DNA of 64,000 bases, taken from NCBI GenBank assembly GCA_015489175.1, contig WGAI01000072.1:2828-66827 (forward strand). Reading direction: 5' to 3'. Below are positions 13,620-64,000 of this stretch, piece after piece (positions within the stretch are counted from its first letter, which is position 1; every line of letters starts with the position of its first letter). The notes below the pieces were generated by a model. The model made no database searches, was not told where the DNA came from, and worked only from the letters and a program-made list of their open reading frames with translations. The translations under genes and the position numbers were made by a program. The stretch is from a candidate division WOR-3 bacterium (GTDB taxonomy: Bacteria > Hydrothermota > Hydrothermia > B15-G9).

Positions 13620-13637
13620 GCCCGGAGGTGATTTACT

Positions 13638-14066: not shown

Positions 14067-14070
14067 GCAG

Positions 14071-14478: not shown

Positions 14479-14504
14479 GGATAAACCCTTAAGGGGGTGA
14501 GAAA

Positions 14505-18274: not shown

Positions 18275-18289
18275 TAAACGGGAGGATTT

Positions 18290-20431: not shown

Positions 20432-20447
20432 TCAGGAGGAGCAGATA

Positions 20448-21440: not shown

Positions 21441-21457
21441 AATTAGGAGGACGGACA

Positions 21458-24400
21458 ATGCTTAACATTATTTTGGCGCTAACTCTGATTAACGGTGGGG
21501 GCGGCGGAGGCGGAGGAGGCCTCCCACAGGTCGGAGATACTCTCACCGTTTGGGTGGACGAGTTCAATCTAATTCTTGGAAGGCACCCCGAAACCGCTCA
21601 GGTTAGAGGTATTACTGATGATGCTTATATCCTGTTGCCTTATGCTGAAGTGGATATCTACTCAATAAACTCATTTCACGATTATATTATTGCTGGATCG
21701 GAAGGTTCAAACTTTTACACCTCAGATAACGGCGGAGAAGTATGGAATGGCGTGAGCTATGTCGCGGATTACGCTAAGCATGTAATTATAGACTCAGTTC
21801 TGTTGGGTTCTGCTACAAATGTTATGACCTTCGTAGCTGGAACAGATACAATCGGATATGCGGTGGCATTTGGTGGGCCAGCTACGATGGTTGTTAACGA
21901 CACGCTCGGAAGAGTTTACGATATCGCACTCACATTCCCTAATCCTACACACAACATCATGGAAGGTGTGATGTATGCCGCTACTGAACACGGTATAGCT
22001 ATGATCAACACCCATGTCGCTCCTCCTCTCTGGCGTTTTACCTTCTCCATAGGCGGTGACGAAAGTCCAACTTACGCCGTTTATGTTTCCTCCGATAGCG
22101 TTTATGCAGGTAGAGATAATGGCCTCTTCGTGTATGACGGAAGCTCATGGGCTCAGATAGCAGGTGTCGATGGTAAAGTGGAAAAGATAGAGGGTTGTCC
22201 ATCGGGCATCCTTATTGGAAGCGATCAGGGTCTCTACCTTTATTCTGGTGGCAGTGTTCAGCAGATTCTTTCAGGTGAAATTACCGACTTTGCCACCGTT
22301 AACGGCAGAATAGCAGTTGTGCAGAACGATACGCTTTACATCAGGGAGAGCGGTGGCTCCGATTTCGTGGCTCAAGATATTCCTGTTACCGTCTACAGTG
22401 TTGGCATACTCGAGGACGAAGGAGAATTCCTTGTTGGGACAAATATGGGGGTTTACAAATACAATAATGAAAATGGCGAATGGTGGAATATAAGCGATGG
22501 TATAGGTAGCATAATTAGTGATTCAAGGGCAACGATGTACATCAATGCAATTCAGGAGGCATTTAACGGCATACCCAATGCAATGCTCAACGCCATCGGA
22601 ATAGATCCTGATACGGCCAACCTTTACGATGCTGATGGGGATCCACATGTTTATATCTATATCACATTCCTTACAAAGAGCAGTAACATTAGTGTCCGCT
22701 ATATTCCCGCCTATTTCGATCCGGCAGATGAGGATACGAGTGCAGAAGATACAATATCCAATAAGAAAGAGATCATAGTGATTAACAAAGGTGATTTCTT
22801 CGACTTTGATGATCAGGAGGCAATGGAGAGACTGCTGGCCTACTTCTATGGTCGCTATGTCGTATGGGCACTCGATCACGATGAGGATCCCTGGGCAGCG
22901 GCTGGTATGGCCTCTCTGGCTGCATATCTTGCAACAGGGCTTGACATGAAAGTCGGTATTGACGGAGTGTGTAGCTTCGAAAGCAATCCTAACCAATACA
23001 TATTCAGTTATCCGACGGATTGGCGTCCTACTCCGATTGTGGCGGACAAGGATCGCGACAGACTATTCCTCTTCTATGAATACCTCAATGAGAGGTTTGG
23101 CTCCGACTTCATAAATAGCCTTTACACAAACGAGGACAACGGCTTTACACCCATTCAGGAGAAACTGAGGCTTGAGGACATAGATTTTGCTGACTTTATG
23201 AACGATTGGTATTTTGCGACTTACTTTGATAATCCTGATCCAAACTTCCACGATGGCAAATACGGATACGAGAACATAGATGTTAACATACAGCCGTCTG
23301 CTTTCTCCCCTGATGGCCAGTTGCTCACACTTCAGCCTTACGGTTCTATCTTCCTGCAAAATGAGGGAACGGATGTGCTGCCATTTTTGTTCAACGGTGA
23401 GGATGACAAGAATTACAGGGTTTACAAGATGGATTCGACTGGCAACATAACCTCCATCACGCTGGATGAAAGAAACAGGGCGAGATTTGACCTCCAGTCT
23501 GGCGAAGTGGTTATGGTGTATCAGCCTGATGCTGCCATTCCTAAATTCTACGCTTCAAGCGATACGGTTGCTCCTTCCGACACAGGCTTCTTCGTGGTTC
23601 AGAACGGCCTGATTCCGCACCGTATTGATGCATATTTCGCTACTACATATCTTGTTTACAGTGACCTCCTCAATCCGATGCCTGAGCTATGGGCGATAGC
23701 CGATCAGGAGACAACTAAATACACCATGTCGCTTTACACCTATCACGACATTTACATCTACAATGTGGATGCTGCTCTCGATGTTCAGGGCGGAGAGGAA
23801 AAGAGGTTCACCCTCCTTATGTATTATCAGGATCAGAGTGGAAATGAGACCATTTCCGATACCACTGAGTTAGTCGTGAGGAGATTTATGCCTCAAGGTG
23901 GAACACTCACGCTTGACAATGGTGGCGTTGTTGTCTCGGTCCCATACAATGCCTTCGATTATGCCACGACCGTTATGGCGGTTAGCAACCCCAAAGTTAA
24001 TCCTGTTGTCGATGGAAGAGATGGAATATCAAGGATTTATGCTATTGGAAACAGCAATATGGTTCTGAATGCTCCTGCGACTATAAGGGTATCTGTCCCG
24101 AATGAGGTTTCCGGCACACCATCATTGTTCAGATGGGAAAACGGCACATGGACGGCTGTTCCCACCGTCTATGACCCTGTGAACCACGAGGTCAGGGCTA
24201 CCGTGGATAGGCTTGGCGTATTCCAGGTCCGTTCCGGTGCTTCTTCACTTGCCCTCAATTTCGCTCTCAGAAACAGAATTGTTCGTGGCGATGTGGTAAC
24301 AGTCGATTATTCACTGCCGAAATCCGAGCATGTCCAGATAGCCGTCTATGACATGACCGGACGCATTGTGGGTCAGGTTTACGATGGCATGCTGAGTGCT

Positions 24401-24511
24401 GGCAAGGGATCCATCCATTGGAACACGCACAATGTCAGGAGCGGTGTCTATTTCCTCAAAGTGAAAGCCGATGACTTTAACAGTGTAAACAAGGTCGTGG
24501 TAATTAAATAA
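21458..24511 (+). CDS. Large secreted hypothetical protein (1017 aa) with an N-proximal poly-Gly tract and a T9SS C-terminal domain
   Basis: AGGAGG SD. MLNIILALTLIN followed by nine consecutive Gly codons. C-terminus VQIAVYDMTGRIVGQVYDG...SGVYFLKVKADDF...KVVVIK. Confidence 0.6.
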   Translation: MLNIILALTLINGGGGGGGGGLPQVGDTLTVWVDEFNLILGRHPETAQVRGITDDAYILLPYAEVDIYSINSFHDYIIAGSEGSNFYTSDNGGEVWNGVSYVADYAKHVIIDSVLLGSATNVMTFVAGTDTIGYAVAFGGPATMVVNDTLGRVYDIALTFPNPTHNIMEGVMYAATEHGIAMINTHVAPPLWRFTFSIGGDESPTYAVYVSSDSVYAGRDNGLFVYDGSSWAQIAGVDGKVEKIEGCPSGILIGSDQGLYLYSGGSVQQILSGEITDFATVNGRIAVVQNDTLYIRESGGSDFVAQDIPVTVYSVGILEDEGEFLVGTNMGVYKYNNENGEWWNISDGIGSIISDSRATMYINAIQEAFNGIPNAMLNAIGIDPDTANLYDADGDPHVYIYITFLTKSSNISVRYIPAYFDPADEDTSAEDTISNKKEIIVINKGDFFDFDDQEAMERLLAYFYGRYVVWALDHDEDPWAAAGMASLAAYLATGLDMKVGIDGVCSFESNPNQYIFSYPTDWRPTPIVADKDRDRLFLFYEYLNERFGSDFINSLYTNEDNGFTPIQEKLRLEDIDFADFMNDWYFATYFDNPDPNFHDGKYGYENIDVNIQPSAFSPDGQLLTLQPYGSIFLQNEGTDVLPFLFNGEDDKNYRVYKMDSTGNITSITLDERNRARFDLQSGEVVMVYQPDAAIPKFYASSDTVAPSDTGFFVVQNGLIPHRIDAYFATTYLVYSDLLNPMPELWAIADQETTKYTMSLYTYHDIYIYNVDAALDVQGGEEKRFTLLMYYQDQSGNETISDTTELVVRRFMPQGGTLTLDNGGVVVSVPYNAFDYATTVMAVSNPKVNPVVDGRDGISRIYAIGNSNMVLNAPATIRVSVPNEVSGTPSLFRWENGTWTAVPTVYDPVNHEVRATVDRLGVFQVRSGASSLALNFALRNRIVRGDVVTVDYSLPKSEHVQIAVYDMTGRIVGQVYDGMLSAGKGSIHWNTHNVRSGVYFLKVKADDFNSVNKVVVIK

Positions 24512-24525
24512 TTTCGGGAGGTTCT

Positions 24526-25419
24526 ATGATGAAAAGGCTCGCCCTTTTATCTGCAATCTTTATCCTGATCGCGGGATGTGGGGTCAAAATGGATACCCCA
24601 TCCCCGTCCGTTGATGCTGACATACTTATCGAGCATGGCTGGAATTTCTATGATGCCGGCCATTTTGAAGAAGCAAAGGCAGCTTTTGACTCCGTTTTCC
24701 TCTTCGCTATTGATAAGCCTGAGGCATTCACAGGTCTTGCGTGGTCGCTCATTCAGCTTGGAAATTACAGTGAAGCTCTCCCTTATCTCAGGCTTGCTAT
24801 GACTGCTGATCCTAACTACTACAAGCCAATTGTCACACCGGTTACGGACGAAATTGATACCGCCCATCTCGACTCCATCGTATATGATGCTTACACCGTC
24901 ATGATTTACGAGGTTCCCGTTAAGCATAGACCGGTGGCTGCTTTCAAAAAGATAAAGCTTGGTAGTAACCCGGTAGATGTCTACTGGATGACTGATACAT
25001 CTGTGGTGATAATTGCCCCGACCAATGCTCGTGATTCGGCCGTCTGCACCGTAACTTACGACCACATCGATACATCGCCCGAGGGCCTTAACCTCGGCAT
25101 AGTTCCTGAGGTCGGCATCGGCATAATGGCTGCTAACCAGGGACTTGGTGAATATGATGAGGCCATTTCGGGAGCCAAAGCGGCTATCTACTACTGGGGC
25201 GATTCTCTTCGTCTCAATCATTATCCGGGACTCAACAGACGGGATATTGACATATCGCTTGCGACAATATACCTTAAAGCAGGTTATTATATGAATGTGG
25301 TTCAGTTGCTGGAGCAGCTTGACGAGAATTTCACATTTCCGGCAGGATTGGATCCTTACGATGCAAACAATGTGTATATTTTGCTTGAGGAGTTGGCACG
25401 CTTAAGAAGCGGCAACTAA
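24526..25419 (+). CDS. TPR-like repeat lipoprotein (hypothetical)
   Basis: GGGAGG SD. Lipobox LIAGC. Helical repeat composition (...AKAAFDSVFLFAIDKPEAFTGLAWSLIQLGNYSEALPYLRLA...). Confidence 0.55.
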   Translation: MMKRLALLSAIFILIAGCGVKMDTPSPSVDADILIEHGWNFYDAGHFEEAKAAFDSVFLFAIDKPEAFTGLAWSLIQLGNYSEALPYLRLAMTADPNYYKPIVTPVTDEIDTAHLDSIVYDAYTVMIYEVPVKHRPVAAFKKIKLGSNPVDVYWMTDTSVVIIAPTNARDSAVCTVTYDHIDTSPEGLNLGIVPEVGIGIMAANQGLGEYDEAISGAKAAIYYWGDSLRLNHYPGLNRRDIDISLATIYLKAGYYMNVVQLLEQLDENFTFPAGLDPYDANNVYILLEELARLRSGN

Positions 25420-25434
25420 ACAGGAGGTAGAATT

Positions 25435-27063
25435 ATGCGTAAAGTGATGTATGTTGTGTTGACACTCTTGTTTGTTGTGGGCACAGTCAATGCCTACAAC
25501 ACAAGGGCATATTCGATAACCGGCGATGATGGCCCGGTTGGCCACAGCAACGGCAGCAAGCTCGTATGGGGCTATACTTTCGGGCCTGCTGGCGATATAA
25601 GGTCGAACCTCGGCACACCCGGCAAGAACATAGCTGCATATCAGGGCAACATAGCGGTTGTGTGGGCTGACACCCTTGGCTGGGATCCTGCAAACGGTTA
25701 TGTCCTCGGTTATCTCAGGGCTTCTTATTCCACCGACGGTGGTCGTACATGGGTGGGGCCGTTCAACCTTACCACCTATGGCATGAGGCGTTACTATCCT
25801 GGCGTCACCTTTGATCAGGTTACCGGCAAAGTCTGGTTTGTCTGGCAGGAGGGACCTCCTGGTTATCCGAACAGCTTGATCAAAGTGGCCACGGATATCG
25901 CTTATCCTTATGGCGTCTTCCAGACCTACACAATGGACACAACCATCAACAACAATGTCTGGCTCCCGGCCATAGACGCCAACGGTGATACCATCATCGT
26001 TGACGGTGTGGATATAGGTTTCGGCGGCACTATCGCTGCATACTACTGGCTGAGCACGGATGGTGGAAACACATGGTCTCCTCAGAGGGTTCTCGTTGAA
26101 AACGGCGGAGATTCGCCTATTCCGAGGATTGGCCCTAACGGATATGTGGCTTTCTACGGCCAGACGATGAATGTTTACGGCGCTGACACGGTCGATGCAC
26201 CTTACTTCATAGAGGCGCATGTAGATGGCGATAGCCTTGTCATCGACAGGGTTGTGGACCTCTTCACAGAGCTTGGCGGCCCGCTTTATCCTGGTGCTAC
26301 AGGATGGTGGTACACCTACGACTTTGTCCTTGACAACAACAACAAACCTCACATCGTCGTGAAGTTCGGATCCGGTAACTACGAGTATGGTGATGTGTGG
26401 CACATCTATCCTACCACAGGTGCTCCTGGCAACTGGGGTGGCTGGCAGGCTGATCTGCTTGTCGGTCTTGGCAATGGTGCCACTGTCGCCACACAGCCGA
26501 ATGTCGGCTTTGATCCATCCACAAACAGGCTCCTTGTTATCTACAAAGCCATCTTCCAGAGGGACAGCACGGACACGACCGGTGCACCTGATATTGGTAA
26601 AGGCACACTCGACCTTAACACCAATGAGTGGTATGATGAAGGCGCATTTGCCGGTGTTGATGATGCAGATGAGGAAGCTGTCGAGCTCGCTCGCATAGTT
26701 TACAATGGTTATGGATTTGCCACTGGTATAGAGGATCAGAATGCAGATGTGCTTCAGGTCGGATATGTCCAAGTTCCTATGGGCGTGGAAGAGGAGCCGA
26801 TTAACAGGAACGAGTTCGGTCTGAGGGCTTTCAACAACCTGACCGAGGGCAACATAGGTGTGTCGTTCGCGCTTCCGAGAAGCGGCAGGGTGGAGGTGAG
26901 CGTGTTCGACGCAGCCGGCAGGAAAGTGGGCACTCTGTATAGCGGCGAGATGGATGCTGGAGATCACAGCCTCACATGGCAGGCTCCGAAATCCGGCATC
27001 TATTTCGTGAACCTCAAATTCGGAAATAGGGAAGCTTCGACCCGCGTGATTGCTGTGAAGTAA
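25435..27063 (+). CDS. BNR/Asp-box repeat (sialidase-like fold) secreted protein with a T9SS C-terminal domain
   Basis: Signal peptide. Asp-box motifs YSTDGGRTW and LSTDGGNTWSP. C-terminal RVEVSVFDAAGRKVGTLY...SGIYFVNLKF...RVIAVK. Confidence 0.65.
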   Translation: MRKVMYVVLTLLFVVGTVNAYNTRAYSITGDDGPVGHSNGSKLVWGYTFGPAGDIRSNLGTPGKNIAAYQGNIAVVWADTLGWDPANGYVLGYLRASYSTDGGRTWVGPFNLTTYGMRRYYPGVTFDQVTGKVWFVWQEGPPGYPNSLIKVATDIAYPYGVFQTYTMDTTINNNVWLPAIDANGDTIIVDGVDIGFGGTIAAYYWLSTDGGNTWSPQRVLVENGGDSPIPRIGPNGYVAFYGQTMNVYGADTVDAPYFIEAHVDGDSLVIDRVVDLFTELGGPLYPGATGWWYTYDFVLDNNNKPHIVVKFGSGNYEYGDVWHIYPTTGAPGNWGGWQADLLVGLGNGATVATQPNVGFDPSTNRLLVIYKAIFQRDSTDTTGAPDIGKGTLDLNTNEWYDEGAFAGVDDADEEAVELARIVYNGYGFATGIEDQNADVLQVGYVQVPMGVEEEPINRNEFGLRAFNNLTEGNIGVSFALPRSGRVEVSVFDAAGRKVGTLYSGEMDAGDHSLTWQAPKSGIYFVNLKFGNREASTRVIAVK

Positions 27064-27093
27064 CGCACGCGAGAGTTGAACGCGCTTGTTATG

Positions 27094-27124
27094 GAGGGGC
27101 CTTGATCGGCCCCTCTTTTTATTT
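27094..27124 (+). terminator. Rho-independent terminator after the BNR gene
   Basis: gaggggcc-ttgatc-ggcccctc hairpin followed by TTTTTATTTT. Confidence 0.6.
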
Positions 27125-27194
27125 TGCACAAACTTAATCGTCCTGCTTTATACTCAATATCTATCGATGAAACCAACAAAATCAGGAGGTGTGT

Positions 27195-30035
27195 ATGTTT
27201 AGATGGCTGATAGCAATAGTTATGAGTATGTCAGCGCTGTCTGCTGGAGTTATAGAGCCCGGTTTCATGGCCAAGCTCAACTCCATGGACGATCATGATA
27301 TGGTCAGGGCAATAGTAACCATGAGAGAAAGCCCTGATTTCGCCACATTGAAGTCTCTTGGAAAGCGCAATGTGGCGGCATATCTGAGAGATCTTGCCAG
27401 TAGGTCTCAAAAAGATGTCCTTGCGTATCTTGATACTCAAAAGGATGCGATTGACTACATATACCCGTTTTGGGTCATAAATGGATTTGCAATTCGTGCT
27501 GAAAAACAGGTCATACTTCAGCTTGCTGCTCGTGATGACATCGGGATAATCGAGGAAGATCGCAAGGTTGAGGTATATCGTGACAGAGCACATGATGGCG
27601 GGAACAGCTCTCCCAAGACTGTGCAATGGAATATCAGAAAGATCAAAGCTGACTCGGTTTGGGCCCTTGGATACGATGGCTCAGGTGTGCTTGTCGGTAT
27701 AATGGACACGGGAATAGACCCGGATCATCCTGCACTTGAGGGCAGATTTTCCGGATTGTGGAAGGATTGCATAAATAACAACCCGATGCCATACGACCCG
27801 GATTCGCACGGCACACATGTGGCAGGAACTATTACCGGAGACGGCCCTTATGGCATAGGCGTGGCGCCTGGGGCACAGTTTGCAATGGCAAGGGTAGTCG
27901 GATCAGGTGGTGGATACGGCTATCAGATTCTGCAAGGGTTCCAGTGGTATGTCTCGCTGGTTTCGGACTCCGGTTATAATATTCCTCTTGTCAGCAACTC
28001 ATGGGGCAACTCTAATACCACCACGACATATTTCTGGAATGCAGTGCTTTCGTGGAGAGCCGTAGGCATAATCCCTGTGTTCGCTATCGGAAACGATGGC
28101 CCAAGTTCAGGCACGGCTGGCACTCCCGGCAACTTCCCCACGGTCATCGGTGTGGGCGCAACAACCTATCAGGACAGGGTTGCAAGCTTCTCAAGTCGTG
28201 GTCCGGCGCCTCATCAGTCTCCGTGGAGCGACACCACATACTGGCCCATACCGGATTGGAACTACATAAAGCCTGATATTTCGGCACCGGGTCAGGGCAT
28301 AATGTCCTCCGTTCCTGGCGGTCGATATGCCACATGGGATGGGACATCTATGGCTACCCCGCACATTGCAGGCGTTATCGCTCTCATGTTCTCGAAGAAC
28401 CCCGATCTTGATTTCGATCAGGTTTACAACATCCTTACGACAACTGCGGACAGACCTGCATCTGGCGGAAGCTATCCTAACAACAGTTACGGCTGGGGTA
28501 GGGTTAACGCTCTTGCCGCTGTCAACGCTGTTCCAGCTCCGACAGACCCCAATCTTGTGCTCATCGATTACACAGTAACCTCCCCCTCAGGCGGGCATAT
28601 CGTTCCCGGCGATACGGCTAATATCGTCGTTCAGGTGACCAACATCTCATCTGTTGTGGCCAATGGCGTGACAGCCACCCTTACGACTGACGATCCGCAT
28701 GTTACCGTTATCAATGGCTCCTGCTCGCTTGGCGACATCGCAAGAGGGGATACAGTTAACAACAGCTCATCTCCCTTCACCTTCGCCGTTTCCCCGACCA
28801 CACCTGATGGTTACGATGTTACTTTCCAGCTCAGGCTTCAGGCGAGCAGCGGCTACACCAGAGATTTTGCTTTAACTGCTACCATAGGTGTTCCGAGGAT
28901 GGATGTTGCTGACATACACACAGTTAATGCCACATTCTCGCTTGTTTCCAACGGCGCTCTCGGATTTGCAGATGATAACCAGAGCGCAGGTAGCGGATTT
29001 GTTTACAGAGGCACTCAGACCCTGTTCTACGGCTCACTTGCTGCCGGTAACGCCTCAGACTATGTAGTTGACAACTGGTATGAGCATAGCACCGATGACG
29101 GCGATTGGATGCCGACGAGCGATCCACCGGGGCGCCTCTACTACATGGATCCGGGCGCAGCACCATGGTATGGTGACGAACAGGTGTGGGGCATGGTGAT
29201 AGATTCCGGACATGCAACTCCTAAAGGACTTGCGGCCGAATTTATTGGATTTGCTCAGAATGAGGATGCTTATGGCGATTTCGTTATAACTGCCTATAAA
29301 TTCAGGAATCTTGGAACCGAGACGCTTAACGATCTCTATTTCGCATGGTTCATCGATTTCGACATAAACGATGCGGCGAGCAACTATTCACGCACAGACA
29401 CGCTCAGGCGTGTGGCCTATATGTGGGGCGGTGCCACTTACGCCGGCATCTCCGTCCCTGATACATCTCTGCCGATAGCCAACCTCAGCGTGATAAACAA
29501 CCAGACCTATGTTTATCCCGATACGGGCATGGTCGATACCAACCAGTGGCATTTCATGAATGGCTCTTATCATTTTTCACAGGGCAACTCTGCTGGTGAC
29601 TGGTCGGTTGTAGTTTCGGTTGGTCCGATTACACTCAACCCTGGCGATTCGGTCTGTGTGCCGTTTGCGATAGTGGGCGGATACGGCATGAACAACTTCC
29701 TCGCCCATGTCGATAGTGCGCGTGTGCTCTACTACAACCCGCTTCTCAACATCGAGGAGGAGCCGGTTTACGGGACGAAACCTTACGGCATTATGCTGTC
29801 CGCCAATCCGTTGCTTCCAAACGGCGTGATAAGCTTCTCCGTGCCTTCTGCCCGTCATGCTGAGGTGCGGCTCTACGATGCGGCTGGCAGACTTGTGGCT
29901 GTGCCGTTCAATGGCATGGCTGAGGCTGGCATTAACAGCGTCAGGCTCCCGTCCAGCTTAAGCAACGGTGTCTATTTCGTGCAGCTCAAAGCGGCTGACA
30001 TCTCCGACACGAAGCGCATCGTCGTCGTCAGGTAA
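27195..30035 (+). CDS. Subtilisin-like S8 peptidase with an N-terminal I9-like propeptide and a T9SS C-terminal domain
   Basis: AGGAGG 6 nt before the ATG. GVLVGIMDTGIDPDHPAL (D), DSHGTHVAGTI (H), GTSMATPHIAGVIALM (S). C-terminus AEVRLYDAAGRLVAV...NGVYFVQLKA...KRIVVVR. Confidence 0.85.
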   Translation: MFRWLIAIVMSMSALSAGVIEPGFMAKLNSMDDHDMVRAIVTMRESPDFATLKSLGKRNVAAYLRDLASRSQKDVLAYLDTQKDAIDYIYPFWVINGFAIRAEKQVILQLAARDDIGIIEEDRKVEVYRDRAHDGGNSSPKTVQWNIRKIKADSVWALGYDGSGVLVGIMDTGIDPDHPALEGRFSGLWKDCINNNPMPYDPDSHGTHVAGTITGDGPYGIGVAPGAQFAMARVVGSGGGYGYQILQGFQWYVSLVSDSGYNIPLVSNSWGNSNTTTTYFWNAVLSWRAVGIIPVFAIGNDGPSSGTAGTPGNFPTVIGVGATTYQDRVASFSSRGPAPHQSPWSDTTYWPIPDWNYIKPDISAPGQGIMSSVPGGRYATWDGTSMATPHIAGVIALMFSKNPDLDFDQVYNILTTTADRPASGGSYPNNSYGWGRVNALAAVNAVPAPTDPNLVLIDYTVTSPSGGHIVPGDTANIVVQVTNISSVVANGVTATLTTDDPHVTVINGSCSLGDIARGDTVNNSSSPFTFAVSPTTPDGYDVTFQLRLQASSGYTRDFALTATIGVPRMDVADIHTVNATFSLVSNGALGFADDNQSAGSGFVYRGTQTLFYGSLAAGNASDYVVDNWYEHSTDDGDWMPTSDPPGRLYYMDPGAAPWYGDEQVWGMVIDSGHATPKGLAAEFIGFAQNEDAYGDFVITAYKFRNLGTETLNDLYFAWFIDFDINDAASNYSRTDTLRRVAYMWGGATYAGISVPDTSLPIANLSVINNQTYVYPDTGMVDTNQWHFMNGSYHFSQGNSAGDWSVVVSVGPITLNPGDSVCVPFAIVGGYGMNNFLAHVDSARVLYYNPLLNIEEEPVYGTKPYGIMLSANPLLPNGVISFSVPSARHAEVRLYDAAGRLVAVPFNGMAEAGINSVRLPSSLSNGVYFVQLKAADISDTKRIVVVR

Positions 30036-48376: not shown

Positions 48377-49426
48377 TCAGAATTTGCGTGATATGTATGG
48401 CAATATCCTGCTTTCTATCAAGGCCTTGATGCCATTCGCCACGAGTTTGACAAAGGGGTAGCCTCTGCCAACAGGGTCAGGGATGTCATCCCCCGACAGC
48501 AAAGCGGCTTTGTGTGCGGCATTGAGCTGCTCCAGCTTTTCAAGATGGCGCCTTTCCATGACATAGATCATGTCGGAATTCTCCAGCAGCTGAGGCGTAA
48601 TCCGTTTTGACCTCCTGTCGCCTGCCGTGATCCCAAGCTCGTTGAGCACCCTTACGACCTCCGAAGGCACAGGCGCGCCGTTAACCGCCGATGTGCCAGC
48701 TGAATCAACATTAACCTTGCCTCTAAGATGTTGGGGCAACAGATGTTGTAACACGGCAGCTGCTATCTGACTGCGGTATATGTTGCCGGTGCAAACAAAA
48801 AGGACATTGAGATCGAGCTGAGTCGAGAGCTTAACCTCGCGATTGATTAGGTTTTCTATCTGAAAGATGGAAATGGGGCCTTTTCTGAGAATGAGGGGCT
48901 CAGAACCACTCATATCAAGCACAGTTGAAGGCGGAGCACCACCGGATGTGCCCATCACAATGAAATCCACGGCATGATTTAGCTGGTCGATCACCTCTTT
49001 CGATGTTCGCGCTGGCGGCATTCCGGAGATATTCGCACTCGTGGATGCAAGTGGAACACGGAGGGCTTTGAGCAGCATCATGACAAGTTCATCATCTGGT
49101 ATCCTGATCCCGATCGTCCCTTTATCGGTCACAAGAAGTTTGGGAGCCTCCGGTTTCGCTTTCAGAACCAGTGTCAGCGGACCCGGCCAGAATTCCTCAC
49201 CGAGAGCGTAAGCTTCTTCCGTGAATTCTGCAAATTTAGCCGCCTCATCGATAGAACTTGCAAACAAGACGAGAGGCTTCTTCAACGGCCTTTTCTTGAT
49301 ATGGTAAATCTTACGGATTGCGTTTTCGTCAAGAGCATTGCCGATGAGCCCATACACGGTGTCCGTTGGGATTGCTACAACACCTCCATTGAGTATCGTG
49401 TCGATAGCTTTTCTGAGTGATTCCAT
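48377..49426 (-). CDS. Fusion of threonylcarbamoyl-AMP synthase (TsaC/YrdC domain) and low-molecular-weight protein tyrosine/arginine phosphatase
   Basis: N-terminal YrdC/Sua5 block GGVVAIPTDTVYGLIGNA...KKRPLKKPLVLF. C-terminal LMW-PTP with P-loop LFVCTGNIYRSQIAAAV (CX5R) and a DSAGT/DP motif. Confidence 0.75.
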   Translation of the reverse strand: MESLRKAIDTILNGGVVAIPTDTVYGLIGNALDENAIRKIYHIKKRPLKKPLVLFASSIDEAAKFAEFTEEAYALGEEFWPGPLTLVLKAKPEAPKLLVTDKGTIGIRIPDDELVMMLLKALRVPLASTSANISGMPPARTSKEVIDQLNHAVDFIVMGTSGGAPPSTVLDMSGSEPLILRKGPISIFQIENLINREVKLSTQLDLNVLFVCTGNIYRSQIAAAVLQHLLPQHLRGKVNVDSAGTSAVNGAPVPSEVVRVLNELGITAGDRRSKRITPQLLENSDMIYVMERRHLEKLEQLNAAHKAALLSGDDIPDPVGRGYPFVKLVANGIKALIESRILPYISRKF

Positions 49427-50141: not shown

Positions 50142-50217
50142 GTGGAGCCCACGCCCGGATTCGAACCGGGGACCTCTTCCTTACCAAGGAAGTGCTCTGC
50201 CTCCTGAGCTACGTGGG
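50142..50217 (-). tRNA. tRNA-Thr (anticodon GGT)
   Basis: Cloverleaf GCCCACG/CGTGGGC acceptor stem, anticodon loop TTGGTAA, T-loop GGTTCGAATCC, CCA encoded; 76 nt. Confidence 0.9.
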
Positions 50218-50231
50218 CATAGGAAGGGGAA

Positions 50232-50305
50232 AAGCGGGAGACGGGATTCGAACCCGCGACACCCAGCTTGGAAGGCTGGAACTCTACCAGGCTGAGTTAC
50301 TCCCG
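50232..50305 (-). tRNA. tRNA-Gly (anticodon TCC)
   Basis: GCGGGAG/CTCCCGC acceptor stem, anticodon loop CTTCCAA, T-loop GGTTCGAATCC; 74 nt, CCA not encoded. Confidence 0.9.
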
Positions 50306-50314
50306 CCTGTTTAA

Positions 50315-50396
50315 ATGGAGGGGGGAGGATTCGAACCCCCGAAGGCTGAGCCACCGGGTTTACAGCCCGGCCCCTTTGGCCGCTTGGGTACCCCTC
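50315..50396 (-). tRNA. tRNA-Tyr (anticodon GTA)
   Basis: GGAGGGG acceptor stem, anticodon loop CTGTAAA, long variable arm, T-loop GGTTCGAATCC, CCA encoded. Confidence 0.9.
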
Positions 50397-50407
50397 CATT
50401 TTTGGTC

Positions 50408-50480
50408 AAGCTGGCGGAGGGACTCGAACCCCCGACCTGGTGATTACAAATCACCTGCTCTTCCAGCTGAGCTACGCCAG
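50408..50480 (-). tRNA. tRNA-Thr (anticodon TGT)
   Basis: GCTGGCG/CGCCAGC acceptor stem, anticodon loop TTTGTAA, T-loop GGTTCGAGTCC; 73 nt. Confidence 0.9.
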
Positions 50481-50679
50481 CACATATTGTCAAAGAACAT
50501 TGTCGGGCTAATAATGTAAGGTAGAGCCCCAACGGTGTCAACTGGAAAATGCCGCCAAATTGGTGAAAACCATACGGTTAAACGGCTCGAAATCGGTCAT
50601 ACTCTGACTGCATGATGGTTCACACCCAACATCGCCACATAAGTGTCGATTGAGCTAAATCCACGCCTCTATGAAACTT

Positions 50680-52743
50680 CTATTCGACCACTCTGTGCGG
50701 ATGTTTCACAATTCTGCGACCGATGATAAATCTCTTCCTCAACCTCTCGTTGTAGTGAGTTTCCTCGGGATCGAACGAGTTTATCGCAACACGCCCCCGC
50801 TCAAGGCTTGCGTGTATGAACTCCATGTTTCCGAGGTAAAGCCCTACATGCCTTGGGAAGAAAACGAGATCGCCGGGTCTAAGTTTCTCGATCGCTTCAA
50901 TCGGCTCGCCGACATTTATCTGATGCTTCGTATCGCGCGGCAACTCAATGCCAAACCTGCGATACATTGCCTGCACAAAACCTGAACAATCAAATCCGAA
51001 CGGAGTTGTCCCGCCCCAGAGATAAGGGACTCCGATGAACCTCAGGGAGAAATTCAGCATTTCCTTGAGGTTGAAGCGAATTTCGTCCTTCCCAAGCAGA
51101 TGTTTACTCTTCACAAACGCCAGATCGCCGCCCGGCAAACGGATGGCCGAGAATTCGCCCACCTCATGGTCAACTATAACACGGGAATTTAGCGGCAGTT
51201 TGCCTATGGGCTCTGACGATTCCGATGGGCCGTCCCTGAGCATGGCGAAATCGTCCGCAACGATGTGAGTCCATTCACGAGGCGCATCTATGTAACGGAT
51301 ATGAGCTGTCTGAACCCATCCCGCATAGCCTTCCTGCGATGTGCGGATAAACGCCCACTCCCCCCTTACCTCGATTACTTTCATCTCGAAACCGTAGATT
51401 ATTTGACTGAACCGCTCGGAGCGGAATGTCGGCAATGCCCGAATATCGGTAACGCCGACCCTGATGGTCGCAAGTTTAGTCTTTTTCTCCTCGTCAGATG
51501 TGACTATCGGTGCGAAAAGTCGCTCTTTGGCGACAAGATCAAAAAATGTCTCCCTGTCCCTCGTGGTAACCCACTTGTCGCCTTTAACAACCGCCTCAGG
51601 TGCCCTTGCACGGCCATTGTAATTGCATGCCATCACGGAGACATAGGCTCCGACATTGGTGAATGATAAAAGTTCGCCCTGTTCAGGCATGGGTATGGGA
51701 TAATTTTTTGCAAGATAATCGCTTGGCTCACAAATCGGCCCAACAATATCGACTTCGACCGGCTCATCATGTTTTTCCTCAACAGGGATTGCCGTATGGA
51801 CAGCTCCGTAAAGCTTCGGCCTTATCAAATCGTTCATTGCAGCATCTACGATCACATACCTCACGCCGCCGGAAAGCTTCCTGTATAGCACTTTGGTGAC
51901 CAGAATCCCGGATGAAGCAACAACAGCACGCCCAGGCTCGATTATCAGCTTTTTGCCGAGCGATTTCACTACCGGCGATATGGCTTTTCCATACTCGGAC
52001 AGGGGCACGAAGTCGGTCTCCTGCTCAGATGTGTATGGAATGCCAAACCCTCCACCGATGTCGATGTATTCGATCTCAGAGAACTCGGTTATCAACGGCC
52101 GAATTTTCTCTATTGCGTCAAGATACGGTTCAGGCGAACGAATCTGCGAGCCGATATGAACGTGTATCCCAACGGGTTGAACAAGTTCCTCGTTTTGAGC
52201 CAGCGTGTAAATCTCGTAGGCTGCATCTGGTGAAACACCAAACTTGGTGCCCCTTTTGCCAGTGGCTATCTGCTCATCGGTGCCAGGCTCTATCTCAGGG
52301 TTCACACGAACAGCTATCCTGACAGGCTTATTGAGCCTTTTAGCTACCTCCACCACCTTGAGGTATTCCTCACCGGACTCTATGTTCAAGAGCAGGATGT
52401 TTTTGTTGATGGCCTCCTCGATCTCGGCTTCCGTCTTCCCGACGCCAGCAAAAACGATCTTTTCAGGCGGGAAACCAGCGAGTATAGCCTTCTTGAGCTC
52501 GCCTCCCGACACAACATCAGCTCCACACCCAAGATGCGTCAACAGATACAGGATGTTGAGGTTGGCATTTGCTTTCAGAGAGTATGCGATAAGTGTGTCT
52601 TCAGGGAACCCAGAGCGCAGTTCGCGTATGCGCCGTTCGATTTCGTCAAGGCTGTAGATATAAAGAGGAGTGCCAAGCTCCTCCGCCACATCCCTCACCG
52701 CTACATCTTCAATATGAAGCTGCCCATTTTTGTAGGAGAGCAT
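50680..52743 (-). CDS. lysA: Fusion of diaminopimelate decarboxylase (LysA) with two SH3b domains and an NlpC/P60 (C40) peptidase domain
   Basis: N-terminal ~410 aa is a PLP fold-III decarboxylase: LGTPLYIYS, SLKANANL, HVHIGSQI, EPGRAVVA, CEPSDYL. Two SH3b-like segments follow. The C-terminus has the NlpC/P60 core GVPYLWGGTTPFGFDCSGFVQAMY...GDLVFF...HVGLYLG. Single uninterrupted 687-aa ORF. Confidence 0.75.
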   Translation of the reverse strand: MLSYKNGQLHIEDVAVRDVAEELGTPLYIYSLDEIERRIRELRSGFPEDTLIAYSLKANANLNILYLLTHLGCGADVVSGGELKKAILAGFPPEKIVFAGVGKTEAEIEEAINKNILLLNIESGEEYLKVVEVAKRLNKPVRIAVRVNPEIEPGTDEQIATGKRGTKFGVSPDAAYEIYTLAQNEELVQPVGIHVHIGSQIRSPEPYLDAIEKIRPLITEFSEIEYIDIGGGFGIPYTSEQETDFVPLSEYGKAISPVVKSLGKKLIIEPGRAVVASSGILVTKVLYRKLSGGVRYVIVDAAMNDLIRPKLYGAVHTAIPVEEKHDEPVEVDIVGPICEPSDYLAKNYPIPMPEQGELLSFTNVGAYVSVMACNYNGRARAPEAVVKGDKWVTTRDRETFFDLVAKERLFAPIVTSDEEKKTKLATIRVGVTDIRALPTFRSERFSQIIYGFEMKVIEVRGEWAFIRTSQEGYAGWVQTAHIRYIDAPREWTHIVADDFAMLRDGPSESSEPIGKLPLNSRVIVDHEVGEFSAIRLPGGDLAFVKSKHLLGKDEIRFNLKEMLNFSLRFIGVPYLWGGTTPFGFDCSGFVQAMYRRFGIELPRDTKHQINVGEPIEAIEKLRPGDLVFFPRHVGLYLGNMEFIHASLERGRVAINSFDPEETHYNERLRKRFIIGRRIVKHPHRVVE

Positions 52744-52744
52744 G

Positions 52745-53455
52745 TTATTCCTCTCCGCTTAGCCTAAGAATCCATTGCTCAAAGAAATCCTTGGGCGCAT
52801 ACCCAATCTGGCGATATCGAACATGGCCTTTTTTGTCTATGATGAATGTGGTCGGGATGGCCCTTATGTTTGAAAATTCCTTGATCTTCAAAAGCTCCCG
52901 AGTGGGCAATGCTACTGGATAATTCATCTGATATTTTTTGTAAAATGCAGCAATCCGTTCGGGTTTATCCGATACAGCTATGCCGATGAACTGCACCTTG
53001 TCGGGATATTTCTTCTGCAACTCTATGAAGGACGGAATTTCCATGCGACATGGGCCGCACCATGTAGCCCAGAAGTCGAGCACAACGACTTTGCCTCGAT
53101 AATCTTTTATTGAGAGCTGTCCGCCATTTAGCAAGGGCACGGTGAAATCCAGCCCCGTGTCTTTCTCAACCACCTTCTTCTCAGCTTTTTTACCATTTTC
53201 ATCTTTTGCAGTCTTCTGGGAAGCAGTGGCTTTTTCAGATTTCGCTTTTTTCTGCGTTTTTCTAACTCTCTTAACTGTATCTACCTCAACCTTAGTGGTT
53301 TCAATCACGGTAGAATCGCCTTCATGTTTGTCAAGCGTATCGGTCGCAACGCTCGTAGTATCTTTCCCCGCGGTTGTCTCCGGCGATTTGTGCTTCTTGC
53401 AACCGAAAACGGCTAAAATAACCACAACTATGAGTAACAATAGCTTATTTTTCAT
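52745..53455 (-). CDS. TlpA/ResA-family thiol-disulfide oxidoreductase lipoprotein
   Basis: Lipobox LAVFGC. Lys/Glu-rich linker. Thioredoxin fold with VVLDFWATWCGPCRMEIP (CGPC active site). Confidence 0.8.
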   Translation of the reverse strand: MKNKLLLLIVVVILAVFGCKKHKSPETTAGKDTTSVATDTLDKHEGDSTVIETTKVEVDTVKRVRKTQKKAKSEKATASQKTAKDENGKKAEKKVVEKDTGLDFTVPLLNGGQLSIKDYRGKVVVLDFWATWCGPCRMEIPSFIELQKKYPDKVQFIGIAVSDKPERIAAFYKKYQMNYPVALPTRELLKIKEFSNIRAIPTTFIIDKKGHVRYRQIGYAPKDFFEQWILRLSGEE

Positions 53456-53650
53456 GCTGTTTGACCTCCGTGTAAGTTGGTGCCGATTTTATCGGTTCAT
53501 GTGTTATCAGTCAATTTTGTGCTTTGCTTAAGCTCAAAGATTTGTGCCTCTCATCGTCAAAATAAATTCACATCCGACTATGGGCCATTTACAATGGCGA
53601 AGGCGCAACTGCGTTTGACCTGAACTTTGAGAATGTTCTATAATCAAAGT

Positions 53651-61315: not shown

Positions 61316-61421
61316 CGGGAATTTAAGGCCCTGCCAATTCGGATTTTCGTCAATCTTTCCCATTTTAAATCCCCCATCAGTGTTCAAACATCCTTGAGCT
61401 GGCTTTAAACTCAAAGCGGCC

Positions 61422-64000
61422 ATGATAAGGGACAGGATAGGCAAATATAAGATCGAAAGCTGGATAGGCGGAGGCGCTTTCGCTGATGTTTTTCTCGGCT
61501 TCGATACCATCACGGAGCAGAGATATGCGCTCAAAGTCTCCCGTCAGAGGCAAAAAGACATCGATATGCTCATTCATGAGGCAAAACTACTCGCATCGCT
61601 TGAGCATCCCTACATAGTCCGTTTTTACAACGCTGACATAATAGATGGTCGGCTTATCCTCGTCATGGAGTATGTCGAGGGAATGTCGCTTCGCACATTG
61701 ATGGAAGAAAAGCAAATATTCCCGCTTCAGGATGCCATTCAGATCATGGGGCAGCTGCTGGAAGGATTGGACTACGCGCACAGGCGCGGCGTGCTCCACA
61801 GGGATCTGAAGCCGGAGAACATCCTGATAACAGAGGACGGAATTGTGAAGATAACCGATTTCGGGCTCGGCGTATTTTTCGGAGGTGAAAAGGCCTCGCT
61901 CTCCGTCGCTGGAACTCCAACCTACATGCCACCTGAGGCATGGAAAGGCGAATACAGCCCCGAATCCGACATCTGGTCGGCTGGTGCCATCTTCTATGAA
62001 ATGCTTGCCGGGCGGCCGCCTTTCTTCGACGAAACGCTTGAAGGCCTGCGCATGAAGATAAAAAATGGGAAACCGCCGAAAATTCCGAATGTCCCACCAG
62101 ATGTGTTCTCGATAATCAAAAAGGCTCTAAACAGGTCGCCTGAAAAGAGGTTCCACAGCTCATCTGAGTTCAGAGCGGCGATATTCAACCATCTGCGCAA
62201 CAGGGAGCTCCCTTTAATTCAGGTCGAGCTGGGAAGAAGACGCTCGAAGACGCTTCAGGGGTTAACAGATGAGCAGGTTGAAGCCGCTACAATCTGGAAA
62301 CCCGCGGTCATGCTGATAGGTGGAGCTGGCACAGGGAAAACCACCACGATAGCGCATCGCATCGCTCACCTTATCAAAGACGAAGGGGTTCCGGCCGAAA
62401 GGATTGTGGCCGTGACATTCACCGGCAAGGCAGCGGCGAAACTGAAAACGCGCGTCGAACACCTCATAGGAGAAGGGCTGGCGCGTCAGCTCTGGACAGG
62501 AACATTTCACATGCTGGGTTTTCGGATAATCTCGTATGGCGCCGACAGGCTCGGCCTCCCGGAAGATCTGATGATAATAGGCAGGGAAGAATCCCTGAGA
62601 ATTGCCATGATTTTGAGCGGCAACGAAAACGCTAATCTGGTCAAGGGGATGCTGAAGGAAATCAGCCTCGCCAAAAGCAAGCTCATTGACCCTCAACAGT
62701 TCTCAGGCAAAGCACGGGGAAAATGGGGCTTTGAAGTGGCCAAACTTTACAAAGCTTATGAGGCATACAAATTTGAGCGCGGCCTTCTGGACTACGATGA
62801 CATGATCTCTATGGCCATAAAACTGCTTAAGGAACACAGCGACATAAGGGAAATTTTCAACGAGAGATTCGATCACCTCATAGTGGACGAGTTTCAGGAC
62901 ATAAATCTCGCCCAATACGAACTTATCATGTATCTCATTCTGGACAGCGTAGGCAAACTCAGGACATCGATATTCGTCACGGGTGATGACGACCAATCGA
63001 TTTACGGCTTCAGGGGGGCATCCATAAAATTCATAAAGAAAATCAGAAAGGATCTGCCTGAAATTGTCGAATTGAGGCTGACCCACAACTTCCGATCGCC
63101 GCCCGACATCATGAAAGCAGCTGAGACATTAATCTCTCATAACAAAAACAGGATACCCAAAGTGATAATCCCCATCCGAAAGGCCTCCGAAGACAAATCT
63201 CTCATATTCTATGCTGCGGCCGATGAGAACGATGAGGCGGAATATGTGGCATGGAAGATAATGACGGAGCATGAAAACGGGTTCGCATACGAGGAAATGG
63301 CTGTGGTAATGCGCATAAACAGCTATTCGAGGGCGTTTGAGGAGGTGCTTGCGAAGAAACAGATACCCTATAACCTCCCGTTCAGCGGCGGGTTCTACGA
63401 GAGAGCGGAGATACGGGAAGCTGTTGAGTTCCTGAAACTTCTGCTGGACATGGCCGACAAATCCATTTTAAAAGCGGCGTTCAGGCGATTTTTTGGCTTC
63501 AACGCATCCGAGGCGGCCGATGCGTTCAGGAATTTCAATCGCACAGGTCGTCCTACATTCTCTAAAAAACTGCCTCAGGAAAAGCTCGACCTTCTGAAGG
63601 CGTTCTGGGAGCTGGTCGAAAACAGGAGAAATGAGCTCGAAATCATATCCCCTGCCGATTTTCTGGAAGAAGTAATCAATCTGAGCGGTTTTCTCAGCGA
63701 GGACAACAAAAACAGCTCTCTGTCGGTTGAGGAGCGGAAAGAGAACATCCGAGAGCTTCTCAACATTGCGGGTTCCTTTGGTCGCGGTGGAATCCGCAAC
63801 TTTCTGACCCACATTGAGATATCGAGAGAGCTGGGCTCGCAGTCCCAATCGTCGGGCGGGGTGCAGATCATGAGCATCCATTCCGCAAAAGGGCTGGAAT
63901 TCCCGATAGTTTTCCTCGTCGGCATGGCCGAAGGCATTTTTCCATCAAACAGGTCAATTGTGGATCCCGTTCAGCTTGAGGAGGAAAGGCGGCTATGTTT
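61422..64000 (+). CDS. Hanks-type Ser/Thr protein kinase fused to a UvrD/PcrA-like SF1 DNA helicase (3'-truncated by the window edge; absent from the supplied ORF track)
   Basis: Read directly from the sequence: ATG at 61422 with in-frame TGA at 61395, then no stop through position 64000 (859 or more codons). Kinase motifs: IGGGAFADVF (Gly loop), YALKV (Lys), HRDLKPENIL, ITDFGLG, GTPTYMPPE, DIWSAGAIFYEML. Helicase motifs from about residue 290: LIGGAGTGKTTT (I), VTFTGKAAAKL (Ia), IVDEFQDINLAQ (II), FVTGDDDQSIYGFRGA (III), LTHNFRSPPDI (IV), SIHSAKGLEFPIVFLVG (VI). Confidence 0.8.
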   Translation, partial: MIRDRIGKYKIESWIGGGAFADVFLGFDTITEQRYALKVSRQRQKDIDMLIHEAKLLASLEHPYIVRFYNADIIDGRLILVMEYVEGMSLRTLMEEKQIFPLQDAIQIMGQLLEGLDYAHRRGVLHRDLKPENILITEDGIVKITDFGLGVFFGGEKASLSVAGTPTYMPPEAWKGEYSPESDIWSAGAIFYEMLAGRPPFFDETLEGLRMKIKNGKPPKIPNVPPDVFSIIKKALNRSPEKRFHSSSEFRAAIFNHLRNRELPLIQVELGRRRSKTLQGLTDEQVEAATIWKPAVMLIGGAGTGKTTTIAHRIAHLIKDEGVPAERIVAVTFTGKAAAKLKTRVEHLIGEGLARQLWTGTFHMLGFRIISYGADRLGLPEDLMIIGREESLRIAMILSGNENANLVKGMLKEISLAKSKLIDPQQFSGKARGKWGFEVAKLYKAYEAYKFERGLLDYDDMISMAIKLLKEHSDIREIFNERFDHLIVDEFQDINLAQYELIMYLILDSVGKLRTSIFVTGDDDQSIYGFRGASIKFIKKIRKDLPEIVELRLTHNFRSPPDIMKAAETLISHNKNRIPKVIIPIRKASEDKSLIFYAAADENDEAEYVAWKIMTEHENGFAYEEMAVVMRINSYSRAFEEVLAKKQIPYNLPFSGGFYERAEIREAVEFLKLLLDMADKSILKAAFRRFFGFNASEAADAFRNFNRTGRPTFSKKLPQEKLDLLKAFWELVENRRNELEIISPADFLEEVINLSGFLSEDNKNSSLSVEERKENIRELLNIAGSFGRGGIRNFLTHIEISRELGSQSQSSGGVQIMSIHSAKGLEFPIVFLVGMAEGIFPSNRSIVDPVQLEEERRLC

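Follow-up and report, generated by a model that had tools for sequence, protein, structure and literature searches.

A 64,000-nucleotide stretch of contig WGAI01000072.1, from a candidate division WOR-3 bacterium (assembly GCA_015489175.1) and hereafter called the window, carries on its minus strand a gene that joins two enzymes in one polypeptide. Its N-terminal half is a meso-diaminopimelate (mDAP) decarboxylase, LysA, and its C-terminal half is a module of the YkfC type, consisting of two SH3b domains and an NlpC/P60 cysteine peptidase domain; we refer to the gene as the lysA::ykfC fusion. An earlier note on this DNA, made from the sequence alone, had claimed one uninterrupted open reading frame (ORF) here, and we recover the same frame, adding its strand: 687 amino acids from an ATG start, with no internal stop codon (Table 1).

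In Pfam searches with this protein, the LysA half matched Orn_Arg_deC_N at residues 32-276 (4.7e-53) and Orn_DAP_Arg_deC to residue 365, and the C-terminal half matched SH3_16 (435-482), SH3_3 (502-549), and NLPC_P60 (571-658; 3.1e-26). The NCBIfam lysA equivalog TIGR01048 scored 426.8 bits against a cut-off of 297.9 over residues 4-407 (model positions 4-416/417), which bears out the reading of the first half as a full diaminopimelate decarboxylase, and residues 2-402 matched the Aquifex LysA 2p3e in a PDB sequence search at about 2e-102 to 5e-103. The claimed YkfC-type SH3b-SH3b-NlpC/P60 module holds as well, on its Pfam domains and on the match of residues 425-680 to the YkfC orthologs 3npf, 3pvq, and 3h41 in the same PDB search (7.5e-29 to 7.5e-23), with end-to-end alignment to 3npf and 3pvq at 1e-29. 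The bifunctional aspartate kinase/LysA model NF006515 was rejected as a description of the protein, scoring 215 bits against a cut-off of 802 with only its LysA part (model positions 500-860) matched. The protein has no signal peptide, again as the earlier note had stated: the alignment with Aquifex LysA sets in as early as residue 2, opposite residue 11 of that enzyme, and the ORF cannot be extended upstream because the stop codon of the preceding gene lies 1 nucleotide before the ATG. With neither a signal peptide nor room for one, the fusion protein is predicted to be cytoplasmic.

Table 1. Coordinates of the lysA::ykfC fusion, its parts, and other features of the window
Feature	Position	Strand	Basis or remark
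lysA::ykfC fusion ORF, complete	50680..52743	minus	687 amino acids plus stop; ATG start; 0 internal stops
LysA (meso-diaminopimelate decarboxylase) domain, residues 4-407	51523..52734	minus	TIGR01048, PDB 2p3e, Foldseek
Inter-domain linker, residues 408-424 (RLFAPIVTSDEEKKTKL)	51472..51522	minus	low pLDDT; gap in alignment with the L098 concatenate
SH3b domain 1 (SH3_16), residues 425-482, contains Tyr473	51298..51471	minus	Pfam; YkfC alignment
SH3b domain 2 (SH3_3), residues 502-549	51097..51240	minus	Pfam; YkfC alignment
NlpC/P60 cysteine peptidase domain, residues 571-680	50704..51033	minus	Pfam; YkfC alignment
Lys57, Schiff-base lysine for pyridoxal 5'-phosphate, in YSLKAN	52573..52575	minus	invariant in aligned fused proteins; equals the YAxKAN lysine of solved LysAs
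C338-E339-P340-S341-D342, trans-acting CES(G/S)D motif with Pro for Ser/Thr	51718..51732	minus	motif alignment
TlpA/redoxin-like lipoprotein gene, upstream of the fusion	52745..53455	minus	stop codon 1 nucleotide before the fusion ATG
GGAGAGG Shine-Dalgarno sequence for the fusion, within the 3' end of the redoxin-like gene	52750-52756	minus	
Candidate sigma-70-like promoter upstream of the redoxin-like gene and the fusion	53486..53514	minus	consensus match only
tRNA cluster Thr(tgt)-Tyr(gta)-Gly(tcc)-Thr(ggt)	50143-50481	minus	
Sua5-phosphatase fusion gene	48377-49426	minus	349 amino acids
Kinase-helicase gene, running off the window end	61398-64000	plus	frame of >867 amino acids
EF-Tu gene	~8740-9783		
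ExbB-ExbD-ExbD-TonB set	12990-15155		
Run of seven large genes	15206-30035	plus	signal-peptide-like N-termini

Conservation of the two active sites

Residue conservation was read from an alignment of seven fused proteins. In the LysA half, K57, H196, G230-232, E269-P-G-R272, R308, Y312, C338, E339, D342, and Y367 are invariant, and in the peptidase half the same holds for Y473, Y574, W576, D585-C586-S587, R603-D604, H632, and H644. The LysA residues include the complete set that binds pyridoxal 5'-phosphate (PLP), namely K57, H196 (HIGSQ), G230-232 (the GGG loop), E269 (EPGR), and Y367 (GAY), together with the set that recognizes the distal L-center of the substrate, R272, R308, Y312, C338, and E339, the Cys-Glu pair being supplied in trans. 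In LysA, the Glu of this trans-acting pair reads the free distal amine of mDAP, and the arginines of EPGR and of RPxLY bind its distal carboxylate (PMC8277567); the conservation of E339, R272, and R308 points to free mDAP as the predicted substrate of the LysA half.

The peptidase half was compared with the YkfC of Bacillus cereus (BcYkfC), whose triad and S1/S2 residue roles are taken from PMC2954226. The triad Cys238, His291, and His303 corresponds to C586 (GFDCSGF), H632 (PRHVGLYLG), and H644 (FIHAS): the earlier note had named the first two as catalytic and had regarded their loss on careful alignment as fatal to its reading, and we find both in place, with H644 as the third residue and all three invariant. 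The S1/S2 residues Tyr226, Trp228, Asp237, Ser239, and Arg255 correspond to Y574, W576, D585, S587, and R603, and the position of Ser257 is Thr605 in the window protein and Thr or Ser among the fused proteins. A further, correlated pair in BcYkfC, Tyr118 of the first SH3b domain and Asp256, is the defining mark of the YkfC subfamily and binds an N-terminal L-Ala through its free amine (PMC2954226). Its counterparts, Y473 (G-Y-x-G-W) and D604 (P-R-D), are invariant in the fused proteins, and in a 39-sequence alignment the Tyr (Y49) does not vary and the Asp (D180) is nearly invariant. As this pair serves an N-terminal L-Ala whose amine is free, the C-terminal module should act on stem peptides already detached from N-acetylmuramic acid (MurNAc) and not on the sacculus. 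Judged from residue conservation, both halves look catalytically competent.

Fused, split, and decayed forms of the gene pair

A word-indexed search of 5.8 billion protein clusters recovered six full-length proteins that share all five Pfam domains of the window protein (97, 81, 80, 55, 43, and 40% identity), the remaining matches being stand-alone LysAs of at most 50% identity. The 97% identical protein (P0001, on contig L010) was taken as a stand-in for the window protein. When the C-terminal module alone was used as query, the same kind of search missed the fused proteins P0001-P0006, up to 97% identical over the full query; this reflects the behavior of the search and not the biology, and its negatives need care. 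Exhaustive profile searching of 1.84 billion representatives with HMMER returned four full-length fused clusters at 50% identity (P0003, P0005, P0241, and P0242), of which P0242, with 644 amino acids, was newly found by this search. The co-occurrence of LysA with NlpC/P60 that had been suggested for checking is thus present in six full-length proteins and four such clusters. Clustered at 90% identity, the fused proteins amount to ~71 sequences, drawn from independent assemblies of NCBI, ENA, JGI, and Logan; the architecture spans 644-690 amino acids and identities from 97% down to 40%. All named members belong to candidate division WOR-3 or Ca. Hydrothermota/Hydrothermae, and partial members carry NCBI names such as "diaminopimelate decarboxylase, partial" or "C40 family peptidase, partial". 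The ~71 independent full-length copies exclude a frameshift or assembly artefact, including the stop or frameshift at residues 410-440 that would have split the gene in two. The fused architecture is real, rare, and lineage-restricted. We found no description of a LysA-NlpC/P60-SH3 fusion in the searchable literature or in curated family libraries, in keeping with the earlier note, which was aware of none.

Among stand-alone proteins, the C-terminal module has its nearest relatives in leaderless sequences of ~247-265 amino acids with at most 41% identity, and the closest of them come from other WOR-3 lineages (Ca. Stahlbacteria and WOR-3 JGI_Cruoil_03_44_89). At the WOR-3 loci L098/L099, a complete lysA of 416 amino acids ends in TGATG, overlapping the start of a ykfC of 247 amino acids. 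A concatenate of the L098 LysA and YkfC aligned with the window protein in one high-scoring segment pair, with 42% identity over 681 residues and a 10-residue gap that falls exactly at the fusion linker. Locus L018 presents a decayed lysA (479-907, plus strand), behind which come a stop codon and an intact ykfC (959-1681); in this remnant, the N-terminal YALKAN...GADVV is joined directly to GPICKLGD...GAY, with most of the triosephosphate isomerase (TIM) barrel deleted. Here, a relative of the fused and paired genes has lost LysA and kept the peptidase.

Unfused pairs were also recovered in other operonic settings. In another genome (L013/L014), an MR_MLE epimerase of the YkfB/YcjG family, lysA, and ykfC follow one another with 4-nucleotide overlaps, accompanied by a GntR regulator in divergent orientation, a GH3 gene of NagZ-like type, and a gene for a solute-binding protein. 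Two further, unrelated metagenome loci, L030 (243-5732) and L037 (52-5768), both among the 80 loci considered next, carry an oppA-like SBP_bac_5 gene, oppB, oppC, lysA, and ykfC in that order, with lysA and ykfC overlapping by 4 nucleotides; no ATPase genes were seen upstream of these operons within the stretch examined. Our search of the literature found no description of lysA-ykfC operons, including the oppABC-lysA-ykfC arrangement.

To place these cases in proportion, we used 80 loci that are the best matches to the C-terminal module in a profile scan of metagenome contigs and not a random sample. Sequence derived from lysA lies within 5 kb of the ykfC-like gene in six of the 80 (five intact, one decayed), against a chance expectation of 0.18-0.36 loci for genomes of 1.5-3 Mb (P ~2e-6 to 3e-8), and every intact neighboring lysA exceeds the TIGR01048 cut-off, at 311-489 bits. 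The MR_MLE (YkfB/YcjG-type) epimerase lies beside module relatives in 28 of the 80 loci and also at L013 and L016, whereas neither the window nor any contig of the fused relatives carries it. From this frequency of the epimerase, the ykfC family to which the module belongs is one of murein-peptide catabolism, with lysA as a recurrent partner that sometimes stands directly behind an oligopeptide importer. As a separate observation, the Zixibacteria loci L016/L017 (4838-10907) carry an alanine racemase, a ykfC-like gene, Peptidase_C39_2, an MR_MLE epimerase, and Amidase_3; in this cluster another fold-type III PLP enzyme is coupled to ykfC, presumably for D-Ala.

One gene pair is thus seen split, fused, and decayed within a single phylum. 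In a neighbor-joining tree of LysA domains, the fused proteins form an exclusive clade, for which one origin is probable. In the simplest history, the fusion arose in the WOR-3/Hydrothermota branch by the joining of an adjacent, translationally coupled lysA-ykfC pair, a step that required a change of frame and a new linker of ~10-17 residues.

The fused LysAs are further set apart by one substitution. The CES(G/S)D motif, whose residues are contributed to the active site by the partner subunit (bioRxiv 10.1101/2020.10.01.322594; also PMC8277567), reads C-E-P-x-D in the window protein and in all eight of the fused database proteins, and Pro occupies the third position in none of 259 non-fused LysAs, where the residue is Ser in 206, Thr in 44, Asn in 3, Glu in 2, and Gly in 1, with no match to the motif in the other 3. 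We ruled out Pro340 as a trait of every LysA linked to ykfC: those that merely lie beside ykfC have CES, CET, or CEN, and the Pro therefore tracks the fused state. Given the probable single origin of the fused clade, its presence in nine fused proteins probably counts as one evolutionary event and not nine. Since Asn, Glu, and Gly also occur in natural LysAs, Ser/Thr at this position is conserved without being strictly defining and Pro340 offers no ground for exclusion; it is treated here as a variant feature of LysA, and the CEP motif as a natural active-site variant worth characterizing. Within the searchable literature and curated families, three things appear to be new: a covalent joining of LysA with YkfC, the recurrent linkage of lysA and ykfC in operons (oppABC-lysA-ykfC among them), and this fusion-specific CEP variant. 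The LysA-YkfC link itself is a rearrangement of two known enzymes and involves no new chemistry.

Proposed function of the fusion and competing explanations

Beyond the observed domain identities, conserved catalytic residues, rarity, taxonomic range, and split, fused, and decayed states, we consider it likely that the fusion is a cytoplasmic bifunctional enzyme for two consecutive steps of murein-peptide catabolism. In the scheme that we infer for what it acts on, for the sequence of its two reactions, and for the source of the peptide, stem peptides from turnover of the cell's own wall or from import would be trimmed to L-Ala-gamma-D-Glu-mDAP. The YkfC-type module, as a gamma-D-Glu-meso-DAP endopeptidase, would split this tripeptide into L-Ala-D-Glu and free mDAP, and the LysA half, presumably a homodimer like all LysAs, would then decarboxylate the D-center of the released mDAP to yield L-lysine. 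The murein peptide-mDAP-lysine route had been put forward before on the domain content of the gene, and it is now backed by gene context as well, through the overlapping WOR-3 pairs, the opp and epimerase operons, and the enrichment of lysA near ykfC. The first cultured WOR-3 isolate, strain sy37, encodes DAP-type peptidoglycan synthesis and grows only on yeast extract (PMC12285271), and mDAP is therefore a fitting metabolite for the phylum.

How the two steps might be coupled was examined in an AlphaFold2 monomer model. Both halves are predicted with confidence (mean predicted local distance difference test score, pLDDT, of 90.9), joined by a linker whose pLDDT falls to 52-73 at residues ~410-420, and the predicted template modeling score (pTM) is 0.71. 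Further dips in pLDDT at residues 301-320 and 361-380 mark regions that may depend on the partner subunit. A Foldseek search with this model matched only LysA structures (target TM-score 0.88-0.93 to solved LysAs) and no solved chain spanning both halves. Confident halves on a low-confidence linker fit tethered modules and lend no support to a tunnel. The coupling would most likely consist of co-expression, a 1:1 stoichiometry that the fusion fixes, and the closeness of two modules on a flexible tether, which suffice as an explanation, and the channeling advanced in the earlier note stays conjectural against a model of two well-folded modules on a low-confidence linker. The cytoplasmic location proposed there stands, but recycling of the cell's own wall is not specifically supported: operons with an Opp importer point just as much to the scavenging of peptides from outside.

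Several observations weigh against a dedicated bifunctional salvage enzyme. No ldcA, ampD/amiD, opp/ampG, or ykfB lies beside the fusion in the window or in the contigs of its fused relatives, and the only conserved neighbor of the fused gene is an unrelated redoxin lipoprotein gene. The low-confidence linker and the pTM of the model give no sign of a fixed interface or channel. The LysA half may be the organism's only, biosynthetic LysA, in which case the link between the halves would be a shared metabolite. The almost universal Ser/Thr of the CES motif is Pro340 here, a change that could alter the activity or specificity of LysA. Finally, the bootstrap of the fused LysA clade is only 38/100, so that the case for one origin depends mainly on the common architecture, the position of the junction and linker, and Pro340.

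One rival reading is a neutral origin, in which a housekeeping LysA and a YkfC peptidase were joined by stop loss between overlapping genes, with no selection for the physical link and no kinetic coupling. Such a history, which we regard as unlikely, would start easily from a TGATG-overlapping ancestral pair, agrees with a linker that is short and predicted with low confidence and with the lack of adjoining recycling genes, and can point to the L018 lineage, which dropped most of lysA yet retained ykfC, so that the pair is not obligatory. It accounts less well for a fusion maintained down to 40% identity and in at least four clusters at 50% identity, for the clade-specific Pro340 change that accompanies the fused state, and for the recurrence of lysA-ykfC adjacency in divergent loci with different partners (the Opp importer, the epimerase), which shows selection for co-expression at least. 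Pro340 also raises the thought that the chemistry of LysA itself has changed, the variant decarboxylating peptide-bound mDAP, and so producing L-Ala-gamma-D-Glu-L-Lys before the YkfC cut, or acting on another D-amino acid. The D-center of mDAP is free in un-crosslinked stem peptides, and the Pro, found in nine of nine fused proteins and in none of the 259 non-fused LysAs, adjoins the Glu that reads the distal amine. YkfC-type enzymes, moreover, accept either Lys or DAP at P1' (PMC2954226). We nevertheless hold altered chemistry to be very unlikely: Glu339, Arg272, Arg308, and Tyr312, which serve the free L-center amine and carboxylate, are all invariant, the lysA equivalog cut-off is comfortably passed, and the LysAs of unfused ykfC pairs carry the ordinary motif.

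Catalytically dead NlpC/P60 proteins such as RipD (NCBIfam) exist, and SH3b and NlpC/P60 modules bind stem peptides; the C-terminal module might on these grounds be a non-catalytic muropeptide sensor exerting allosteric control over LysA. The invariance of the Cys-His-His triad and of all S1/S2 residues down to 40% identity is, however, the pattern of an active enzyme and makes a sensor highly improbable. An artefact of frameshift or misassembly, or an exported wall hydrolase acting on the sacculus, is scarcely credible. The former is already refuted by the ~71 independent copies; the latter draws on prior expectation, as many NlpC/P60 proteins are secreted, and is opposed by the absence of a signal peptide and of room for one, by an N-terminal partner that is a PLP enzyme of cytoplasmic metabolism, and by a Tyr/Asp pair that demands a free N-terminal L-Ala, that is, peptides off MurNAc.

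A bolder extension of the bifunctional-enzyme reading is that the fusion-linked Ser-to-Pro change may re-tune the trans loop for direct capture of the mDAP that the tethered YkfC module releases, by channeling or gating, or that peptide-bound mDAP may itself be a substrate of the decarboxylase. Combined with the operons linked to opp, this would make murein peptides of dead cells the main lysine source of WOR-3 and other uncultured lineages. We rate this proposal as speculative and rather improbable. If true, it would amount to a dedicated "necromass-to-lysine" pathway with lysA as a catabolic gene.

Turning to the surroundings of the fusion, the redoxin-like lipoprotein gene and the fusion are co-transcribed. 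The same neighbor, 1 nucleotide upstream, recurs in the closer relatives (L007, L010, L011, and L012; 97, 80, and 55% identity) and is missing beside the 43% and 40% relatives. A functional link between the two was considered and set aside, as no mechanistic connection is evident, and we regard the pairing as unexplained synteny. Downstream of the fusion lies the tRNA cluster, whose order is that of thrU-tyrU-glyT-thrT in E. coli; it is followed by a 221-amino-acid protein of no assigned family in place of tuf, the EF-Tu gene being located far off. A second lysA, dap genes, ldcA, ykfB, and opp were not found in the window (Pfam searches of 30 further ORFs and the annotation of L010, with the large ORFs at 15-30 kb excluded). 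The scanned ORFs encode housekeeping or secreted proteins: RtcB, PEPCK, EF-Tu, BacA, ExbB/TonB, GpsA, PlsY, RecG, an M1 peptidase, Trm1, YceG, RNase HII, Sua5-LMWPc, a GatA-like amidase, EamA, and a class IV aminotransferase.

The window holds other composite genes. One encodes a Sua5/YciO/YrdC domain, of the t6A synthesis family, fused to a low-molecular-weight phosphatase with the P-loop CTGNIYRS, an architecture shared by the 97% relative (L010); it may be a Rosetta-stone fusion for the ywlC-ywlE neighborhood known in Bacillus. Another joins a Ser/Thr protein kinase (HRDLKPEN) to a UvrD-type helicase (GGAGTGKT Walker A), and its 897-amino-acid homolog in L010 has Pkinase, UvrD-helicase, and UvrD_C domains. 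The run of seven large genes, encoding proteins of 1022, 713, 330, 1017, 297 (with tetratricopeptide repeats), 542, and 946 amino acids, directly follows the ExbB-ExbD-ExbD-TonB set.

Relation to known LysA and YkfC systems

The C-terminal module shares the SH3b1-SH3b2-NlpC/P60 order and the Cys-His-His triad with the YkfC/DPP VI subfamily, represented by the YkfCs of B. subtilis and B. cereus (3h41), DPP VI of B. sphaericus and of Bacteroides (3npf, 3pvq), and the YkfC of Chlamydia trachomatis. Like the YkfCs of B. subtilis and Chlamydia, whose cytoplasmic location is established (PMC2954226, PMC9928106), it would act in the cytoplasm, and its relatives cluster with a YkfB-type epimerase as in Bacillus. 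It differs in being covalently attached at the C-terminus of LysA, in lacking adjacent ykfB, ykfA, or dpp genes in the window, and in sequence, with ~30% identity to solved YkfCs and Arg or Gly in place of BcYkfC His290. The LysA half has the fold, PLP lysine, and trans Cys-Glu pair of stand-alone LysAs (Aquifex 2p3e, H. pylori 2qgh, and T. maritima 2yxx; 42-50% identity) and their HIGSQ, GGG, EPGR, RPxLY, and GAY motifs; it is distinguished by a 280-residue C-terminal peptidase extension and by the Pro that replaces the CES(G/S)D Ser/Thr in all fused members but in none of the other LysAs examined. The unfused operons (L098/L099, L030/L037, and L013/L014) keep the same lysA-ykfC order, with translational coupling through overlaps of 1-4 nucleotides, but encode two polypeptides, and their LysAs have the ordinary CES, CET, or CEN.

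In E. coli, murein tripeptide is taken up by MppA-OppBCDF, cleaved by the gamma-D-Glu-mDAP amidase MpaA, and processed further by the epimerase YcjG and by LysA; the use of mDAP freed from the tripeptide as feed for LysA is implicit in the physiology of that organism. The net chemistry is the same as that proposed for the fusion, from tripeptide to L-Ala-D-Glu and mDAP and then to LysA or MurE. MpaA, however, has a metallo-carboxypeptidase fold unrelated to NlpC/P60, and E. coli lysA is neither joined to the other genes of the route nor linked with them. An assay used for Chlamydia, complementation of delta-dapD delta-mpl E. coli with tripeptide, follows the logic of this route (PMC9928106).

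Peptidoglycan recycling is usually described either as a return of the tripeptide to wall synthesis through Mpl or as breakdown to amino acids by unlinked genes. Here, several uncultured lineages tie the mDAP-liberating enzyme to LysA, by an operon behind an oligopeptide importer or, in WOR-3/Hydrothermota, by fusion. For annotation, this offers a Rosetta stone in which a ykfC-adjacent lysA signals murein-peptide salvage and not only lysine biosynthesis, and it provides a testable route from cell-wall debris to lysine in hard-to-culture organisms. The predicted single-chain enzyme that would convert L-Ala-gamma-D-Glu-mDAP to lysine could also become a reagent for muropeptide assays or biosensors.

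Other fusions of LysA provide a precedent. Among them, the LysA-chorismate mutase proteins P0262 (792 amino acids, also with prephenate dehydratase) and P0318 (641 amino acids), again with the partner at the C-terminus, make an odd pairing of lysine and phenylalanine metabolism and are less common than LysA-DapF fusions. In the latter (P0244, P0254, P0264, and P0272), the partner likewise sits at the C-terminus of LysA and likewise delivers mDAP, and LysA therefore tolerates an mDAP-delivering C-terminal partner; the aspartate kinase-LysA proteins (NF006515) likewise join LysA to an enzyme of DAP/lysine metabolism. The partners in LysA-DapF and aspartate kinase-LysA are biosynthetic, whereas that of the lysA::ykfC fusion is a catabolic, or salvage, peptidase.

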